Source of the DNA: a virus
Length of the DNA stretch: 5,109 nt
Direction: 5' to 3' (one strand)
IMG/VR virus record: IMGVR_UViG_3300029794_000105
Coordinates: 1-5,109 of that record
Shown: positions 1 through 5,109 of the stretch, one piece after another
Layout of the letters: each line of letters starts with the position of its first letter
Position numbering within the stretch: position 1 is the stretch's first letter
Notes under the pieces: generated by a model
The model's input: the letters and a program-made list of their open reading frames with translations, nothing else
Database searches by the model: none
What the model was told of the DNA's origin: nothing
Made by a program: the position numbers and the translations under genes

Positions 1-123
1 AGTAGCAGTAACAGTAGGGATGACATAATCAGTACTATCGTCAGGGTCTTCCTGTTCGAAACAGAAATTCTGCCAATGGTCCCAAACTAGACGATTCGGG
101 ACGAAGAAGAAGAACCAGTCGAG
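1..123. repeat. Terminal redundancy of the window: 1..123 is base-for-base identical to 4987..5109, so the genome is a 4986-nt circle and the window is longer than the replicon
   Basis: Direct comparison of the first 123 nt (agtagcagtaacagtaggga...ccagtcgag) with 4987..5109 shows an identical string. The minus-strand VP1 reading frame is continuous across this junction; 4986 is divisible by 3, so frame is preserved. Confidence 0.9.
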
Positions 124-351
124 ATAGATATTATCCATGATGGGCTTAACAGGAGTAGCCAAACGAGCGAAGTAATTGACAGACATCCTAGTGGTGTCGC
201 CAGGCAATACTTCGTCGACGAATACAGGTATGAGCTTGCCTGAGTCGAAAGTCGTCTTATAGACATGTGAGCGGTCGAATTTAGTGCGACGCATATACAT
301 TGCAGGAGCATCGCTGAAGCGATGACCTCTAACTCTAATTTTTCGAGCCAA
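1..351 (-). CDS. VP1: Major capsid protein VP1, N-terminal part. It is continuous with 3619..4986 around the circle, for a total of about 556 codons if it starts at TTG 351-349, or 539 if at ATG 300-298
   Basis: The minus frame with codon tops at n=0 mod 3 reads HFEEGEI-L(ttg 351)-ARKIRVRGHRFSDAPA-M(300)-Y-M(294)-RRTKFDRSHVYKTTFDSGKLIPVFVDEVLPGDTTRMSVNYFARLATPVKPIMDNIYLDWFFFFVPNR... The in-frame TAA at 375-373 bounds it. FDRSH...LPGDT is the gokushovirus VP1 N-terminal motif. The TTG at 351 is preceded by GAAGGTGA (356-363) at ideal spacing, whereas the ATG at 300 has no SD. Confidence 0.85.
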   Translation of the reverse strand, partial: MARKIRVRGHRFSDAPAMYMRRTKFDRSHVYKTTFDSGKLIPVFVDEVLPGDTTRMSVNYFARLATPVKPIMDNIYLDWFFFFVPNRLVWDHWQNFCFEQEDPDDSTDYVIPTVTAT

Positions 352-355
352 TATT

Positions 356-363
356 TCACCTTC
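356..363 (-). promoter_or_regulatory. Shine-Dalgarno GAAGGTGA, 4 nt upstream of the in-frame TTG at 351-349 (candidate VP1 initiation site)
   Basis: The minus-strand sequence is gaaGAAGGTGAaataTTGgct. It is complementary to the anti-SD core, with a 4-nt spacer between the SD and the TTG. Confidence 0.5.
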
Positions 364-372
364 TTCGAAGTG

Positions 373-412
373 TTAACCTAATAATTAACCTAAAGAAAAT
401 TATTATTAGGTT
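373..412. repeat. Direct repeat TTAACCTAA x2 (373-381 and 385-393, 12-bp period) plus an 11-bp inverted repeat AACCTAATAAT (375-385) / ATTATTAGGTT (402-412). Sits in the AT-rich non-coding region upstream of VP1
   Basis: Read directly: ttaacctaa taa ttaacctaa agaaaattattattaggtt. The reverse complement of 402-412 equals 375-385 exactly. Confidence 0.7.
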
Positions 413-427
413 TCAGATTAATATTGC

Positions 428-470
428 GTCACCTACGCCAGTTACATCAAGTAAGTAACTGGCTCGGTGA
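428..470. other. GC-rich imperfect hairpin (outer stem GTCACC/GGTGAC, inner 8-bp stem CCAGTTAC/GTAACTGG, 9-nt loop) immediately 3' of the VP3 stop, flanked at 415-426 by the palindrome AATATTAAT. Candidate rolling-circle origin or packaging structure
   Basis: Plus strand GTCACC tacg CCAGTTAC atcaagtaa GTAACTGG ctc GGTGAC. Both stem pairs are exact reverse complements. This is the only GC-rich structured element in the sole sizeable non-coding region of the genome. Confidence 0.5.
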
Positions 471-473
471 CGC

Positions 474-956
474 CTATTCTTGTATTTTTTTATTATTTTG
501 TTCTAAAGTGTTACTTTTTTCTTGTGTTTGTTCACTATTTACGGACTGTTGTGGTTTATCAAAGGTAGAATTGCTACCATACAGACCTTGTTGCTGGAGA
601 TATTCGAGCGTTTCAGGGTTATTTAATTGGCTGATGAAATTCATGGGATCGTGACCGTATTTAGCTCGAACGTAAGCGGGCAGACTGTAGAATTCTTCAC
701 GAACTCCGGAAACAAGCTCGAGAGCGGTACTATAGTCACCGGGAAGCGTTGCATCTCCGAACTGCAGATAAGCATACTGCGAACTATCGCCGAGATCGAG
801 AGTAGCTATGCCTTTCTGACCATCTGCATATTTATTAACAATGTAATTGATATCAGTTTCATCTTTTTCGTCCTGAACCGTGAGGGAGGGCATTGTGAAT
901 TCAATGCCGCAATGATCATGTTCTTCTACTGAGTCGTAAGCTGTCTTAAATTTCAT
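474..956 (-). CDS. VP3: Internal scaffolding protein VP3-like (160 aa, strongly acidic)
   Basis: ATG at 956-954 is preceded by a near-perfect SD AAGGAGGTGA (961-970) with a 4-nt spacer (aac before the ATG). The protein MKFKTAYDSVEEHDHCGIEFTMPSLTVQDEKDETDINYIVNKYADG... is acidic, of typical gokushovirus VP3 size, and sits directly upstream of VP1 after the intergenic region. Assigned from composition, size, synteny and a remembered resemblance to gokushovirus VP3 N-termini; not confirmed by search. Confidence 0.7.
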   Translation of the reverse strand: MKFKTAYDSVEEHDHCGIEFTMPSLTVQDEKDETDINYIVNKYADGQKGIATLDLGDSSQYAYLQFGDATLPGDYSTALELVSGVREEFYSLPAYVRAKYGHDPMNFISQLNNPETLEYLQQQGLYGSNSTFDKPQQSVNSEQTQEKSNTLEQNNKKIQE

Positions 957-960
957 AGTT

Positions 961-970
961 TCACCTCCTT
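961..970 (-). promoter_or_regulatory. Strong ribosome binding site AAGGAGGTGA for VP3
   Basis: Plus strand tcacctcctt is the reverse complement of AAGGAGGTGA, then aac, then the ATG. Confidence 0.7.
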
Positions 971-1004
971 TCGAATGCGCCTAGACGCGGCGGGCGTAGC
1001 GCAC

Positions 1005-1039
1005 AAAAAAAGGGCGATCTCCGTGAGATCGTCCTTTTT
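1005..1039. terminator. Bidirectional rho-independent terminator: A7, then a 10-bp stem (GGGCGATCTC / GAGATCGTCC, one G-T position), 3-nt loop, then T5. On the sense (minus) strand the hairpin is followed by U7
   Basis: aaaaaaaGGGCGATCTCcgtGAGATCGTCCttttt read directly. Located in the 109-nt gap between the ORF95 stop (1066) and the VP3 start (956). Confidence 0.6.
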
Positions 1040-1056
1040 CTGATACGCTCTATATT

Positions 1057-1085
1057 AGATTATCATTAGATAGAGTCATTGTCAA
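1057..1085 (-). promoter_or_regulatory. Sigma70-like promoter candidate on the sense strand: consensus -35 TTGACA (1085-1080), 17-nt spacer, -10 TAATCT (1062-1057)
   Basis: Minus strand TTGACAatgactctatctaatgaTAATCT. The -35 is perfect; the -10 retains A2 and T6 only. It is odd because the terminator hairpin lies about 20 nt downstream of the predicted start. Confidence 0.3.
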
Positions 1086-1353
1086 TATCCTGCACGTAAT
1101 CTACGGCGCGACCAACCAATACAGGAACGCGGGATTCGTCAGAACTTTCAATATAATAACGGCCATCAGAATCGCCAAGGTTACCGATGTAATAAAGACT
1201 AAAATCTTCAGGATAGCTATTAATAAGCGTCTTATCATCATTGCATAAACCCTCGAAAGCTCGCAGAGCGAGCATGTCATTATGGTAGACCTGTGGGGGG
1301 CTGAATTGTTCAGCCTTGGAGTCATAAATGGAATAGAGTCTCAGTGTCAACAT
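1066..1353 (-). CDS. Hypothetical protein, 95 aa, strongly acidic (about 17 D/E vs 7 K/R), unknown function. Occupies the VP4-VP3 accessory interval
   Basis: ATG at 1353-1351 is directly abutted by AAGGAG (cgaaAAGGAGatg; spacing is suboptimal, and a TTG second codon is an alternative). It overlaps the end of ORF94 by 32 nt in another frame and fills otherwise non-coding space in a compact genome. No recognisable motif. Confidence 0.5.
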   Translation of the reverse strand: MLTLRLYSIYDSKAEQFSPPQVYHNDMLALRAFEGLCNDDKTLINSYPEDFSLYYIGNLGDSDGRYYIESSDESRVPVLVGRAVDYVQDIDNDSI

Positions 1354-1606
1354 CTCCTTTTCGTAAGTGGATTATAAACCGACGAATCATAAGGTGCGTA
1401 GAATTAGGTATAACGAAATAATCAGAATCAAGTCGAATAACATTATAACCGTCAGGTTTGAGTCGATAGGCAGCGTATTTAGAACCTCTGAAAACGAACT
1501 TAAAGGGTATACCTTTATGTTTGCAAAAGGATTTGACGGCAGCAAATTCGCTAGAAAATCGTTCGATATAATCACCTTCTTTCTGACCTAATAATAACAC
1601 AATCAT
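1322..1606 (-). CDS. Hypothetical protein, 94 aa, in the position occupied by VP5 in chlamydiaphage-type gokushoviruses (immediately 3' of Rep). Translationally coupled to VP4 by an ATGA overlap
   Basis: Start ATG 1606-1604 overlaps the VP4 stop TGA 1605-1603. Upstream AAGGT is 6 nt from the ATG. Protein MIVLLLGQKEGDYIERFSSEFAAVKSFCKHKGIPFKF... is mildly basic with no TM segment. Confidence 0.55.
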   Translation of the reverse strand: MIVLLLGQKEGDYIERFSSEFAAVKSFCKHKGIPFKFVFRGSKYAAYRLKPDGYNVIRLDSDYFVIPNSTHLMIRRFIIHLRKGDVDTETLFHL

Positions 1607-2514
1607 AATACCTTGTCAAGCTTTCTGCCGAGAAAATGCTTATACTTACCTTCCTGAACGCGACAACGATCAATCAATCGCTCGAAAGTATTATTCTCCA
1701 AGTTATGAAGCATCTTCTCAATGCGATTATTACGAATGTATTCCATCCAGTGAGGATGTGTTTCATTGAATTTATTGTCGTAATAATGAGGAGGACGCAT
1801 CTTCTTACCGTTGATAACAACGAAATCATTAGCATAACACTCTTCACCATGCTCTTCAAGCCATTTTCCGCCTATGCCAGGACGATTGGATGCAAGCATA
1901 AACTCAGGCGTACGGCCATTATAGTGAGCAGCAGCTTTACTGCCAGTCTGCTTCTTCACTATGTAACGCGCGACATAGGCAGCAGCATCGAAACTAAAGT
2001 CGCCAATAAGATGCATACCGTATTTCCATATCTTGGAGAAGCGAGCAGAAGTATAAGTGCTATAACCGTCTGTACGGAACCGAAAAACTTTGTCATCAAA
2101 ATTAATATTAAACAATATATAATGATAATGGGGACGACCATGAAGTTCACCATATTCACCACAGCCGAGGAAGCGAATGCCATTGCCATACTCACGACGA
2201 AGATTTTTCATGAACGTCTGATGAAATTTCTTGCTCAAACTTCTATCGCTCGGCAGATGATAATCGTCGAAAGTACAAGTAACGAAAAAAGCAGAGGACG
2301 AAGTACGGGCTTCGTGAACAGCTCTGACAGCCCATTGACGAGAGTTTTCAAGTCGACAACCGATGCACTGCTTGCAAGAACAACGAATGAACCGACTATC
2401 GTTAGCAAGTTCAGGGTGAGAAGCCAAGCTGCCGTAGAAACTATAATGTTGTTTTCCGTTTTTCGTAAATGCTCCTTCGACCGGGTACATGAGAATAGGA
2501 TTGTAGCATACCAT
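1603..2514 (-). CDS. VP4: Replication initiation protein VP4 (rolling-circle Rep, phiX174 gpA-like), 303 aa from ATG 2514. The ORF track's start at 2523 is an upstream GTG
   Basis: RCR motif I is FFVTCTFDD. Motif II is GRPHYHYILF. Motif III has two tyrosines, AAYVARYIVKK (compare phiX174 A YVAKYVNKK). The N-terminal Cys cluster CSCKQCIGCR is typical of microvirus Rep. N-terminus MVCYNP fits the microvirus MxCxxP start. SD AGGTGA lies 5 nt upstream of ATG 2514. Confidence 0.95.
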   Translation of the reverse strand: MVCYNPILMYPVEGAFTKNGKQHYSFYGSLASHPELANDSRFIRCSCKQCIGCRLENSRQWAVRAVHEARTSSSAFFVTCTFDDYHLPSDRSLSKKFHQTFMKNLRREYGNGIRFLGCGEYGELHGRPHYHYILFNINFDDKVFRFRTDGYSTYTSARFSKIWKYGMHLIGDFSFDAAAYVARYIVKKQTGSKAAAHYNGRTPEFMLASNRPGIGGKWLEEHGEECYANDFVVINGKKMRPPHYYDNKFNETHPHWMEYIRNNRIEKMLHNLENNTFERLIDRCRVQEGKYKHFLGRKLDKVL

Positions 2515-2556
2515 ATTAATCACCTGTACCGATTGTATCAGGATTAAGTCAGAATG

Positions 2557-2667
2557 TCAAATCCTAAATCCACCTCGTCCTACTCTCTTGAAATTCCTAC
2601 GACGAGATCTAGAGGTGCGCTGAAAGAGACGGCGAGAACCTCGCTTAGACACGCGGCGTCTTTTCAT
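2557..2667 (-). CDS. 36-aa arginine-rich micro-protein (MKRRRVSKRGSRRLFQRTSRSRRRNFKRVGRGGFRI; 14 R + 3 K). Candidate DNA-binding/condensing protein analogous to phiX174 J / chlamydiaphage ORF8. Absent from the ORF track because of its length
   Basis: Hand translation of the minus strand: ggagggatactaaATGAaaagacgccgcgtgtctaagcga...aggattTGA. The ATG (2667-2665) overlaps the TGA stop of the 79-aa ORF (ATGA). GGAGGG sits 7 nt upstream. An in-frame TAA immediately precedes the ATG, so the start is unambiguous. Stop TGA at 2559-2557. Its position directly upstream of Rep matches ORF8 of chlamydiaphages. Confidence 0.6.
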   Translation of the reverse strand: MKRRRVSKRGSRRLFQRTSRSRRRNFKRVGRGGFRI

Positions 2668-2903
2668 TTAGTATCCCTCCAAGAACCGAAAAAACGGCTA
2701 GTTTTTTTAGAATCATTCTTATTAGAAATTGGCTCAACAAGTTTGTCAACATCGTGCGAAAAGTCGGATGCGACTTTACTGGCAAGCTGAGTAGATGAAG
2801 TAGGACGACCTTTAAGTGCTTCGATCAGATCACAAACTTCCTGAATAAATGGAACAACAACGGTGACAATGAAAGTTAGAATCATAGTAGTTTTGTTAGA
2901 CAT
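2664..2903 (-). CDS. 79-aa small membrane protein: N-terminal single transmembrane helix (MILTFIVTVVVPFIQEV) and a hydrophilic C-terminal tail. Function unknown; candidate lysis or entry-associated protein
   Basis: ATG 2903-2901. The VP2 stop TAA (2920-2918) sits inside its SD (TAAGGAGtgcaaaatacATG). Downstream it is coupled by ATGA to the Arg-rich ORF. Same strand as all real genes, and it fills the VP2-VP4 interval. Confidence 0.6.
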   Translation of the reverse strand: MSNKTTMILTFIVTVVVPFIQEVCDLIEALKGRPTSSTQLASKVASDFSHDVDKLVEPISNKNDSKKTSRFFGSWRDTK

Positions 2904-2917
2904 GTATTTTGCACTCC

Positions 2918-3604
2918 TTACTTGAAAAGATAACCAATACCACGAAGAATATGGCCAAGACCTGAATTGCCAACACCTAACGAGTCATAGAAGTCAGCTT
3001 CCTGCTTCGAAAGACGGGCATTTTGGGCCGCGAAGCCCGCGGCAGAATTGGACTGATTAGCTGAAGCAATGTTGGAAAGTATGCCTGAAGAGAGATAGGA
3101 TCCTTGAAGCCTTAGGTTCTGCAGCTCCTGATCCATTCGCTGAAGCTCATAGCCAAGGCGTTTTTCGTAAGTCTGCTCGGCGAGATTAAGATTATTAGCC
3201 TTAATACCATTATCTAGAACTATTCCATGGGTCGCCTGACGCGTAGAATCAGCTTCTGCGACGTTTTTCTCAATTTGAGACACGGCAAGATGCTCGGCAT
3301 TCTTAGCCTGCCGTTCAGCGGCACTAGCAGCTCTAGCAGAGTTCATGGTAGAACCGATATCACTCATTCCGACAGAAGCAGCTGAAGCTCCAGCTATAGA
3401 ACCGCCTATACCATTAGTCGCAGCAAGAATAGGGTTAAGACCAGCTTTGCGCATATCTTCAACAGCCCATTGATAACGTTGTTTATAATTTTCAACGTTC
3501 CAAGCGTTAGCCTGTGCGGCGTTGGAAGAATTATAATGATTCTGAACTGCGGATCCAAAGATGGAACCAGCAACGCTGCCTAACGTATTAGAAAGCCATG
3601 ACAT
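2918..3604 (-). CDS. VP2: Minor capsid / DNA pilot protein VP2, 228 aa, Gly/Ala/Ser-rich
   Basis: Contains the hallmark gokushovirus VP2 block NAWNVENYKQRYQWAVEDMRKAGLNPILAA (N.W..E....Y...V.DM.KAGLNP.LA). ATG 3604-3602 is preceded by AAGGAG with a 10-nt spacer. Starts 14 nt after the VP1 stop. Confidence 0.88.
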   Translation of the reverse strand: MSWLSNTLGSVAGSIFGSAVQNHYNSSNAAQANAWNVENYKQRYQWAVEDMRKAGLNPILAATNGIGGSIAGASAASVGMSDIGSTMNSARAASAAERQAKNAEHLAVSQIEKNVAEADSTRQATHGIVLDNGIKANNLNLAEQTYEKRLGYELQRMDQELQNLRLQGSYLSSGILSNIASANQSNSAAGFAAQNARLSKQEADFYDSLGVGNSGLGHILRGIGYLFK

Positions 3605-3618
3605 ATAACCAACTCCTT

Positions 3619-5109
3619 CTAGAAGTGATCGACAAGACCAGGTGTGCCGAACATAGGCATAGGACGCACGGTAGTATAACGGAAGCCTATGTCGAGCAAA
3701 AACTCAGGCTCATCCTGAACAGCGACAATGCGCTTAATAGGTGGATTCTCGGTAATGAATTCCTCATTCAGAGTAGGCGCATTGCTGAAATACTGGGACA
3801 GGTGCCAAACGTCAAGGTTACCATCAACTACAGAACTACGGAATTTCCCGGTAATCTGCGAAGGTTTGTAACGATATTCAGCATAACGCTCCTGGTAACC
3901 GAAAACAGTAGTATCATCTTTAGTACCCTGAGCGTAAATCTCGCGAAGCTCAATAGCCTGTTCACCAAGGTGTGCGAATGTCGGCCAATAGAAATCATAG
4001 ACAGTAGAACGAAGCCACATCTTATTAATGCCTTGTTGATAGGTAAGGTCGGCGCGGGCACAGACGAAGCCTATAATATAGCCGTGTTCGACGAAAGATT
4101 TCGTAAATCCATGGAATCTAGACGCAGTAACACCGTAAGCTGAGAGATTGCCTTGAGGAGAAGTGTTGTCGGTCGCAGAAGTCTGAGCTATTGGGTTGAC
4201 GTTGACCATCTTAGTGAAAGAACCGAGAAACTCAGGGCGCTGAAGACGAGCGTCCGGAGAAACTACACCGAAGAAAGAGCGAAGCACTTCAGTGTACCGA
4301 CTGCCACCGCGAGCAAGGCGCTCGTAGAACTTCTGCATCTGAAAAGCAGTACGAAGACTATTGATAGTGAAAATGCTAGAAGAATCCAAGTCGGCATAAG
4401 CAGATTTAGAAAGCCATGAAGAACCGGGTTGAGCAGTAATAGTAGACACACTAGAATTGTTGATAGAGTGACCAGCTATAGAAACACTATAACCACCTTG
4501 ATACTGTAATGTACCGCTTCCAGTATATACATCATGAACACCGCCATCTTTCGAAAGCTGAGCAGCGCCTAAGCTATTATTAGACTGTTGAACGAAATAG
4601 CCCGAAACAGGCGAAGGGTCAACTAGAGTAGCGGTGCCGGCAAGGCCTATAGATACACCGGGTCCTTTCTGTGTCCAAGGAAGGGCCGAAGTAAAGTAAT
4701 CATGACGCTTGCCGCGAGGTGGGCAAGCAAGACCAGCTACTAAAGTAGTGTCGGAACTGAATACCCATGAAGGCTGATCGGAAGAACGAGAGGAATCCAA
4801 TGCTTCATTGGTATCGCCTTTCTGGATTTTGACAGACTTCTGGAGATTTTCATCTCTGAACCATTCGTTCCAAATGAGGTATACAGCGCGGAATGGAAGA
4901 GCACTAACGGTTAGATTACCAGGCGTATTCACGGGCAAGCCGAAATAGTCCCATAGAGAACCTACGTAATTATTATCGCTGTTAGCAGTAGCAGTAACAG
5001 TAGGGATGACATAATCAGTACTATCGTCAGGGTCTTCCTGTTCGAAACAGAAATTCTGCCAATGGTCCCAAACTAGACGATTCGGGACGAAGAAGAAGAA
5101 CCAGTCGAG
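3619..5109 (-). CDS. VP1: Major capsid protein VP1 (Microviridae F/VP1 family), C-terminal ~496 codons. The ORF runs off the window end and continues at window position 123 downward because the genome is circular
   Basis: Hand translation upstream of the reported TTG at 4938 shows the frame stays open to 5109: ...LDWFFFFVPNRLVWDHWQNFCFEQEDPDDSTDYVIPTVTATANSDNNYVGSLWDYFGLPVNTPGNLTVSALPFRAVYLIWNEWFRDENL... This matches the conserved gokushovirus VP1 block (FFVPNRLxW, DYxGLP, ALPFRAY..NE.FRD). The C-terminus ends ...RYTTVRPMPMFGTPGLVDHF with a TAG stop at 3619-3621. The 4938 start in the ORF track is an artifact of the window edge. Confidence 0.93.
   Translation of the reverse strand, partial: LDWFFFFVPNRLVWDHWQNFCFEQEDPDDSTDYVIPTVTATANSDNNYVGSLWDYFGLPVNTPGNLTVSALPFRAVYLIWNEWFRDENLQKSVKIQKGDTNEALDSSRSSDQPSWVFSSDTTLVAGLACPPRGKRHDYFTSALPWTQKGPGVSIGLAGTATLVDPSPVSGYFVQQSNNSLGAAQLSKDGGVHDVYTGSGTLQYQGGYSVSIAGHSINNSSVSTITAQPGSSWLSKSAYADLDSSSIFTINSLRTAFQMQKFYERLARGGSRYTEVLRSFFGVVSPDARLQRPEFLGSFTKMVNVNPIAQTSATDNTSPQGNLSAYGVTASRFHGFTKSFVEHGYIIGFVCARADLTYQQGINKMWLRSTVYDFYWPTFAHLGEQAIELREIYAQGTKDDTTVFGYQERYAEYRYKPSQITGKFRSSVVDGNLDVWHLSQYFSNAPTLNEEFITENPPIKRIVAVQDEPEFLLDIGFRYTTVRPMPMFGTPGLVDHF
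4987..5109. repeat. Second copy of the terminal redundancy (equals 1..123)
   Basis: Same observation as feature 1..123. Confidence 0.9.

Follow-up and report, generated by a model that had tools for sequence, protein, structure and literature searches.

The 5,109-nt stretch of DNA analysed here, which we call the window (IMG/VR virus record IMGVR_UViG_3300029794_000105, positions 1 to 5,109), is a circular gokushovirus genome of 4986 nt with a 123-nt terminal overlap, presented as its reverse complement. Directly downstream of the gene for the internal scaffolding protein VP3 lies a hairpin, hairpin 1, which to judge from its sequence is probably the plus-strand origin of rolling-circle replication, nicked in its loop at TTACTTG^AT (window 448|447). 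The loop is invariant on the packaged strand while the stems covary freely, and the same loop is found in phages of Chlamydia, Spiroplasma, Bdellovibrio, E. coli and gut anaerobes; it is this combination that leads us to read the hairpin as a plus-strand origin. A nick site read by a Rep that the phage itself encodes would produce such a pattern, and recognition by a host-specific factor is unlikely across hosts as different as these. In the Microviridae the coding strand is the packaged strand, and is the one that Rep must nick. The coding strand is the window minus strand for every gene, and features are therefore given on the minus strand. The argument turns on two of them:

426..473, minus strand: hairpin 1, the candidate plus-strand origin stem-loop, 48 nt (5' arm 473->455, loop 454->446, 3' arm 445->426).
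446..454, minus strand: loop of hairpin 1, TTACTTGAT, with predicted Rep cleavage at G448/A447 (ACTTG^AT).

On the coding strand (473->426) hairpin 1 reads GCGTCACC-GA-GCCAGTTAC-[TTACTTGAT]-GTAACTGGC-GTA-GGTGACGC, with 17 base pairs, a 9-nt loop and a small internal loop (GA versus GTA); as an oligonucleotide this coding-strand hairpin is GCCAGTTACTTACTTGATGTAACTGGC. It contains the longest perfect stem of the genome. Folded as DNA it has a minimum free energy of -18.8 kcal/mol, compared with -4.8 +/- 1.7 for shuffled sequences (z = -8.2; none of 200 shuffles equalled it), and the opposite strand gives z = -7.2. A preliminary description of this DNA had proposed an imperfect, GC-rich hairpin directly after the VP3 stop codon and recommended folding both strands; the folds bear the structure out, and its GC content is indeed raised (54%, versus 44% for the genome and 23% for the remaining intergenic region). 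The dimensions given at that time need correction, as the hairpin is 48 nt long and not 43, and begins immediately after the TAG at 476-474 rather than 3 nt beyond it (the sequence GTCACC begins 2 nt after the stop), while an end coordinate of 470 drops the three outer pairs.

We compared the VP3-VP1 intergenic regions of 81 genomes of the window's clade, namely the window itself, seven INPHARED records and 73 IMG/VR contigs, and hairpin 1 was found in all of them (81/81). Both sides are altered in 7 of 20 stem pairs among 25 distinct variants, a degree of compensation that none of 500 column shuffles matched, and when the partner is slid by 1-3 columns the stem pairing falls from 89% to 24-49%. 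Several lineages have ACCAG/CTGGT in place of the stem GCCAG/CTGGC, and others have GACAG/CTGTC; perfect pairing closes the internal loop in four genomes (L010, L048, L052 and L071), and in L063 the lower stem is wholly rewritten (CAGTCGTG.../...CACGACTG). Hairpin 1 is real and its structure is under selection. In three GenBank records labelled as complete genomes, KT264819 (L005), OP971938 (L007) and OP971933 (L009), the sequence is deleted, truncated or filled with Ns exactly at the hairpin. These defects are probably artefacts of assembly or of the polymerase chain reaction (PCR) at the palindrome, and about 100 nt that include the putative origin are therefore likely to be absent from these records.

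The loop core ACTTGAT, at window 452->446, is identical to phiX174 4301-4307, a segment spanning the viral-strand origin that the phiX174 record annotates at 4306. It is kept in 80 of the 81 clade genomes, the exception (L040) reading ACTCGAT, and on the coding strand it occurs exactly once in 72 of 90 clade loci. The surrounding phiX174 sequence, 4299-4316, is CAACTTGATATTAATAAC, in agreement with the preliminary description, which had taken the phiX174 origin as its point of comparison. Protein A of phiX174 cuts and rejoins G4305/A4306 by means of Tyr343 and Tyr347 (bioRxiv 10.64898/2026.07.25.740675), and the Reps of gokushoviruses and of phiX-type phages (bullaviruses) are monophyletic (PMC6668415). 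The cleavage heptamer ACTTG^AT, which in phiX174 lies within CAACTTG^ATATT on the packaged strand, is the same here, and both phages have an A/T-rich tract 3' of the site. Both also encode homologous two-tyrosine HUH Reps: protein A carries HFHAVHF and YVAKYVNKK where VP4 carries HYHYILF and YVARYIVKK, the latter correctly identified in the preliminary description, and the motif common to the gokushoviruses and phiX174 is YVA[KR]Y[VI]xKK. In some gokushoviruses the loop reads ACTTGATAT(T), which lengthens the phiX174 match to 9-10 nt. The Rep of the window and its motifs are encoded as follows:

2523->1603, minus strand: VP4, the Rep, an HUH endonuclease (Pfam REP_ORF2-G2P, E = 3e-17) and the enzyme presumed to act on the loop.
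2110-2130, minus strand: HUH motif of VP4, HYHYILF.
1951-1977, minus strand: two-tyrosine motif of VP4, YVARYIVKK.

If hairpin 1 is the plus-strand origin, Rep would bind it on the supercoiled double-stranded replicative form, where the inverted repeat would extrude as a cruciform or be melted by Rep itself. The 9-nt loop would thereby be exposed as single-stranded DNA on the coding (packaged) strand. One of the YVARYIVKK tyrosines would cut G448/A447 and become bonded to the 5' phosphate of the A, and the 3'-OH of the G would then prime the host polymerase. After one round, the second tyrosine would cut the regenerated stem-loop on the displaced strand and join the ends, so that termination would take place at the same site and a circular single strand would be released for packaging.

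The Rep of the window clade is at most 42% identical to any other Rep in the phage collection, and distant gokushoviruses were therefore sampled widely. The first four distant genomes examined each carry the same loop core, on an unrelated stem, in the perfect hairpin that is strongest there or ties for strongest, and the element was found in every cultured or host-linked lineage tested (Chp2, SpV4, phiMH2K, Chp1 and the E. coli gokushoviruses). The individual hairpins are:

Chp2, 2904-2941: loop TCTACTTGAT.
SpV4, 512-544: loop ATTACTTGTTATA.
MG945816, 2058-2093: loop CTACTTGA.
PQ006272, 4603-4639: loop ATACTTGAC.
phiMH2K, 3296-3335: loop ending in ..CTACTTGTTGTAA.
Chp1 (NC_001741), 2750-2777: 9 bp, 4 nt after ORF3/VP3, loop CCTCTTGGCT with a CTTG core.
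E. coli prophage (C41 chromosome NZ_CP127252, 3020367-3024653): 20 nt after VP3, loop GCCCTACTTGATGTA.
E. coli episome CP057117 (4549 bp, recorded as a plasmid): after VP3, loop GCCCTACTTGATGTA.

The hairpin of Chp1 ties for the longest perfect stem in its genome; the GenBank record of this phage annotates four 'hairpin-like structures' (h1-h4), and the 2750-2777 hairpin is not among them. Both E. coli elements have the gene order of the window, and in each the hairpin with the ACTTGAT loop is the strongest. The CP057117 'plasmid' is a gokushovirus episome, and a search of a plasmid collection for Rep plasmids lacking a capsid gene returned only gokushovirus episomes or prophages.

A larger distant set was assembled by fetching 199 contigs with three distant VP1 seeds, of which 189 were usable, their VP1 proteins being about 55-65% identical to those of the seed phages. 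We counted, blind to any motif, the 5-mers in the loops of hairpins with perfect stems of at least 7 bp, and the most frequent in these 189 genomes were CTTGA (128), TTGAT (125), ACTTG (117) and TACTT (96), the best unrelated 5-mer reaching 26. When loops of up to 20 nt are allowed, CTTGA lies in such a loop of the coding strand in 135 of the 189 genomes and of the other strand in 19, and a further 38 have one-base variants of the loop (ACTAGAT, CTCGAT, CTTGTT). The loose variant class (CTTG[TG], CT[AC]GA) has a background of about 23% on the opposite strand, and it is therefore the strict CTTGA counts on which we rely. Among 132 elements there are 104 distinct 5' arms; the median stem is 10 bp, the element is the longest perfect stem of its genome in 128 of 173 cases, and its consensus is yTACTTGATGTAAC. 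The hairpin of the window is thus one ordinary member of a subfamily-wide element.

The element stands directly downstream of VP3 in 168 of 173 genomes, 129 of which have the order VP1-VP2-VP3-[hairpin]-VP4-VP5 and 39 the order of the window, VP4-VP5-VP3-[hairpin]-VP1-VP2. Since VP3 and the hairpin stay together in both gene orders, they behave as a module. The two orders look as if either a VP3-hairpin cassette or the two flanking blocks had moved, a pattern that would fit recombination at an origin.

It is quite possible, if somewhat short of probable, that the Gokushovirinae share an undescribed plus-strand origin in which a cleavage sequence of the phiX174/pC194 type (yTACTTG^AT-GTAAC) is combined with a stem-loop of the CRESS-DNA/pT181 type, and which has travelled with VP3 as a module through rearrangements. 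In the accessible literature, which included Roux 2012, Krupovic and Forterre 2011, Labonte and Suttle 2013, Kirchberger 2020 and 2022, and the reekeekee/roodoodoo paper, we found no description of the element or of any gokushovirus origin; the original genome papers of Chp2, phiMH2K and SpV4 lay outside this coverage and may mention it. The reekeekee- and roodoodoo-microviruses have conserved intergenic hairpins with an identical loop and compensatory changes in the stem, but, compared by description, they belong to different clades, and neither a loop motif nor a link to phiX174 was reported for them (PMC9865509).

As regards the stem-loop, hairpin 1 resembles the origins of CRESS-DNA viruses (the geminivirus/circovirus nonanucleotide) and of plasmids pT181 and pMV158 in having an intergenic, GC-rich, covarying stem, an invariant loop with the presumed nick site, and an HUH Rep. 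It differs from them in its loop, which is TACTTGAT here and TAATATTAC or NAGTATTAC there, and in its Rep, which belongs to another family, has two tyrosines and lacks an SF3 helicase domain. The element does not adjoin rep in the window genome, whereas it does so in the Chp2-type gene order. As regards the cleavage sequence, the pC194 origin contains CTTGATA (PMC7072734). The double-strand origins of the pC194/pUB110 family, nicked at CTTG^ATA, share CTTGAT at the nick with the element. A TAAC follows CTTG^AT within a few bases in pC194 (CTTGATAATAAGGGTAAC), in phiX174 (CTTGATATTAATAAC) and in the gokushovirus consensus (CTTGATGTAAC); it may be a second shared recognition element or a coincidence. 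The Reps of pC194/pUB110-family plasmids have a different catalytic arrangement.

Several observations weigh against reading hairpin 1 as a plus-strand origin. Cleavage in the loop is predicted by analogy with other sequences, and the core in common is only 7 nt long. ACTTGAT is not in itself a rare sequence, occurring twice in the window where 0.93 copies are expected; the signal is in its position and invariance. In phiX174 the origin is internal to gene A and protein A acts without a hairpin (4299-4328 contains no stem of 6 bp or more), whereas the element here is intergenic and its motif lies in a hairpin loop. Nothing here corresponds to the rest of the 30-nt phiX174 origin, that is the spacer and the 'key' ACTATAGACCAC. 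The rival explanations are not told apart by strand specificity, because a minus-strand origin or an element of the messenger RNA (mRNA) would also sit on the coding strand. Symmetric changes in a palindrome can also arise through templated repair or gene conversion between the arms, and covariation therefore somewhat overstates selection. The linkage to the 3' end of VP3, which persists despite the change in gene order, could mean a role at the level of RNA or one connected with VP3. Among the 189 distant genomes, 13 have no detectable element (6 of these are incomplete contigs), and in 3 the loop is inverted. Finally, a strong hairpin with an ACTTGA loop was found in none of five larger (5.8-6.5 kb), Rep-divergent microvirus genomes, and we rejected an extension of the element to all Microviridae on this account; the top hairpin of one Stokavirinae-like genome has a loop containing AACTTGAC. 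In the genomes with an inverted loop, which are L291 (4127-), L144 (506-) and one more, the motif is found only on the strand opposite VP1, as in GACCAGTTG-[ACATCAAGTAGGA]. An inverted loop between otherwise normal arms could have arisen as an artefact during amplification or assembly, or the flip could be genuine.

In the main alternative, hairpin 1 would be a minus-strand origin that recruits host primase, RNA polymerase or PriA when it forms on the incoming single strand, although we regard this as unlikely. The PriA hairpin of phiX174, the primase site of G4 and the single-strand origins of plasmids all work as minus-strand priming hairpins, and hairpin 1 has the right setting for one, being intergenic, on the packaged strand and the strongest hairpin of its genome. 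Known minus-strand origins are nevertheless specific to host factors and differ even between phiX174 and G4, whereas the loop of hairpin 1 is the same in phages of all the hosts named above. Moreover, the conserved loop matches the plus-strand cleavage site of phiX174 and not its minus-strand origin, and hairpin 2 (375-412), described below, is an alternative candidate for this role. The intergenic hairpins of phiX174 (the terminators TJ/TF/TG/TH and the PriA-bound minus-strand origin) lie between structural genes on the coding strand, as hairpin 1 does, but they have U-tracts or host-factor specificity, while here there is no T-run and the loop is conserved across unrelated hosts. The minus-strand origin of phiX174 sits in an intergenic hairpin overlapping a terminator (bioRxiv 10.64898/2026.07.25.740675), and because of that overlap dual functions are possible; a minus-strand role has also been suggested, without certainty, for the intergenic hairpins of other small microviruses (PMC9865509).

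Quite improbable, in our view, is an RNA element at the 3' end of the VP3 message, which would act as a stabiliser, a processing site or a non-canonical terminator and tune the ratio of VP3 to transcripts further downstream. The position directly downstream of VP3, whatever gene comes next, and the strong fold of the hairpin as RNA (-30.8 kcal/mol) would both suit such an element, and the intergenic hairpins of phiX174 are leaky terminators (bioRxiv 10.64898/2026.07.25.740675). However, a stabiliser or terminator needs no invariant loop, whereas here the stems drift and conservation is highest in the loop. G-T wobble pairs show no excess relative to other mismatches, the counts being very small, and there is no match to an Rfam family: the sole Rfam 15 match in the window, at 4973-5007, is a chance-level one to malK-II (E = 0.95), and was rejected. 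A canonical intrinsic terminator at hairpin 1 was likewise rejected. The tail is GCAATATTAATC and has no T-run, the preliminary description having been right that no U-run follows the hairpin; a T-rich tail is present in 0 of 173 homologues, and a terminator scan finds a canonical hairpin with a T7 tract only elsewhere in the genome.

A site for another phage protein, be it a packaging or condensation signal bound by VP5 or a J-like protein, or a regulatory operator, is very improbable. An invariant loop on variable stems would suit any conserved phage-encoded protein, and nearby repeats of the 7-mer TTAGGTT/AACCTAA suggest protein binding, but the match to the phiX174/pC194 cleavage sequence would be left unexplained. 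No separate packaging signal exists in phiX174, where packaging is tied to the origin and to protein A. Lastly, we give almost no credence to a Rep nick in the AATATTAAT tract beside hairpin 1, with the hairpin as a mere flanking structure, for although ATATTAAT, present at 424->417, is shared with the phiX174 origin and occurs three times in the window versus 0.39 expected, it stands beside the hairpin only in the window among 74 clade genomes counted, its VP4 copy is kept in 3 of 89 clade loci, and phiX174 is cut 5' of ATATTAAT, within ACTTG^AT, a sequence that here is in the loop.

Two further locations or identities were considered and rejected. For an origin inside VP4, in the style of phiX174, no conserved candidate was found in the clade loci, so that the case which the preliminary description had named as contrary to its proposal has no support. 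A XerCD dif site is not indicated either: by eye, the region contains no good dif-like 28-mer (11-6-11), and temperate relatives have the site at another place. That of the enterogokushoviruses is between VP2 and VP5 (PMC7062461), and the E. coli prophage is linearised at dif with the hairpin internal, between VP3 and VP1.

Between hairpin 1 and VP1 are two features that belong to the same intergenic region:

424->417, minus strand: ATATTAAT, the nick core proposed earlier, within the A/T-rich tract 3' of hairpin 1.
375..412, minus strand: hairpin 2, AT-rich, downstream of hairpin 1 and upstream of the VP1 ribosome-binding site; its perfect stem has 11 bp (AACCTAATAAT/ATTATTAGGTT) and its loop 16 nt.

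The preliminary description had proposed a rolling-circle origin related to that of phiX174, and this general idea is the one best supported; it overlooked ACTTGAT in the loop and sought the nick motif in ATATTAAT. That sequence is present beside the hairpin, but in phiX174 ATATTAAT does not span the cut and lies 3' of it. The recommended alignment of related intergenic regions upheld the hairpin and not the motif: relatives read AAAAATAAT or AAAAATAAA at this place, and all seven INPHARED records with this region read AAAAATAAT. As AATATTAAT is unique to the window genome, it cannot be a conserved nick site, and we rejected ATATTAAT as a nick core on this ground. The copies of ATATTAAT in the window are at 417-424 (-), 2101-2108 (-) and 2513-2520 (+), an excess reached in none of 200 shuffles, and the two outside the intergenic region are unconserved or coding. 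The excess appears to reflect an oddity of A/T-rich sequence confined to this lineage rather than a motif with a function.

Stem-loop origins of the CRESS-DNA, pT181 and pMV158 kind are accompanied by iterons, repeated Rep-binding sites beside the stem. The candidates for these in the window are three copies of the 7-mer at 375-412, but they form hairpin 2, and the middle one is variable in the clade. One pair of hairpin 2 covaries (T-A in 50, G-C in 17 and unpaired in 7), and L063 has another sequence there but keeps the pairing. Hairpin 2 could serve as a minus-strand origin, as a binding site for Rep or a host factor, or as a regulator of VP1.

The window has about ten gut gokushovirus relatives by megablast, at 82-86% identity, and hundreds of relatives in IMG/VR. 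Its remaining features, including open reading frames (ORFs), are the following:

351->1 then 4986->3619, minus strand: VP1, major capsid protein, 572 aa; relatives are 76-94% identical.
351->349, minus strand: TTG start codon of VP1; translation from 351 yields 572 aa.
363->356, minus strand: ribosome-binding site of VP1, GAAGGTGA, conserved in the clade alignment; with the start codon (349..363) it bounds the intergenic region downstream.
3604->2918, minus strand: VP2.
2903->2664, minus strand: 79-aa ORF without a Pfam match, a hypothetical protein in some related records.
1606->1322, minus strand: 94-aa ORF without a Pfam match.
1353->1066, minus strand: VP5 (Pfam Phage_ORF5).
956->474, minus strand: VP3, internal scaffolding gene (Pfam Chlamy_scaf, E = 5e-23), whose TAG stop abuts hairpin 1.
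1005..1031, minus strand: canonical intrinsic terminator between VP5 and VP3, CGATCTC-ACG-GAGATCG (1031->1015) then T7, CCCTTTTTTT; separate from the origin.
2532..2560, minus strand: best sigma-70-like promoter match, TTGACA-17-TACAAT with TG, upstream of VP4; a consensus match only, separate from the origin.

The region that contains hairpin 1 is not the only extended non-coding one, as had been thought; there are three, at 352-473 (122 nt), 957-1065 (109 nt, containing the terminator) and 2524-2663 (140 nt, containing the best promoter match). A strong promoter-like site, TTGACA-17-TATTAT, is located at 1619->1591, directly upstream of the 94-aa ORF. Many IMG/VR contigs of the clade (L011, L023, L031, L033, L050, L071 and L088) start 662-663 nt upstream of VP1. 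This start point is inside the palindrome of the VP5-VP3 terminator (window 1004-1042), and assemblies therefore tend to break at the inverted repeat.

Gokushoviruses are the most widespread single-stranded DNA phages, known from thousands of genomes, and they dominate many single-stranded DNA viromes of the gut and the sea. If their plus-strand origin is the element described here, it would be a missing link between the origin of phiX174, which has no hairpin, and the stem-loop origins found elsewhere, and it would provide a test case in which one Rep lineage (that of phiX174 versus that of the gokushoviruses) recognises one cleavage sequence whether or not a hairpin presents it. It would give gokushovirus genomes a natural coordinate zero and a universal landmark for annotation, and would account for the breaks at the hairpin in assemblies and in PCR-derived 'complete genomes'. 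Minimal replicons, phagemids and packaging substrates could then be built in the tractable E. coli gokushovirus system. The origin would also be a likely hotspot of recombination, relevant to the rearrangement of gene order linked with VP3 in these phages.

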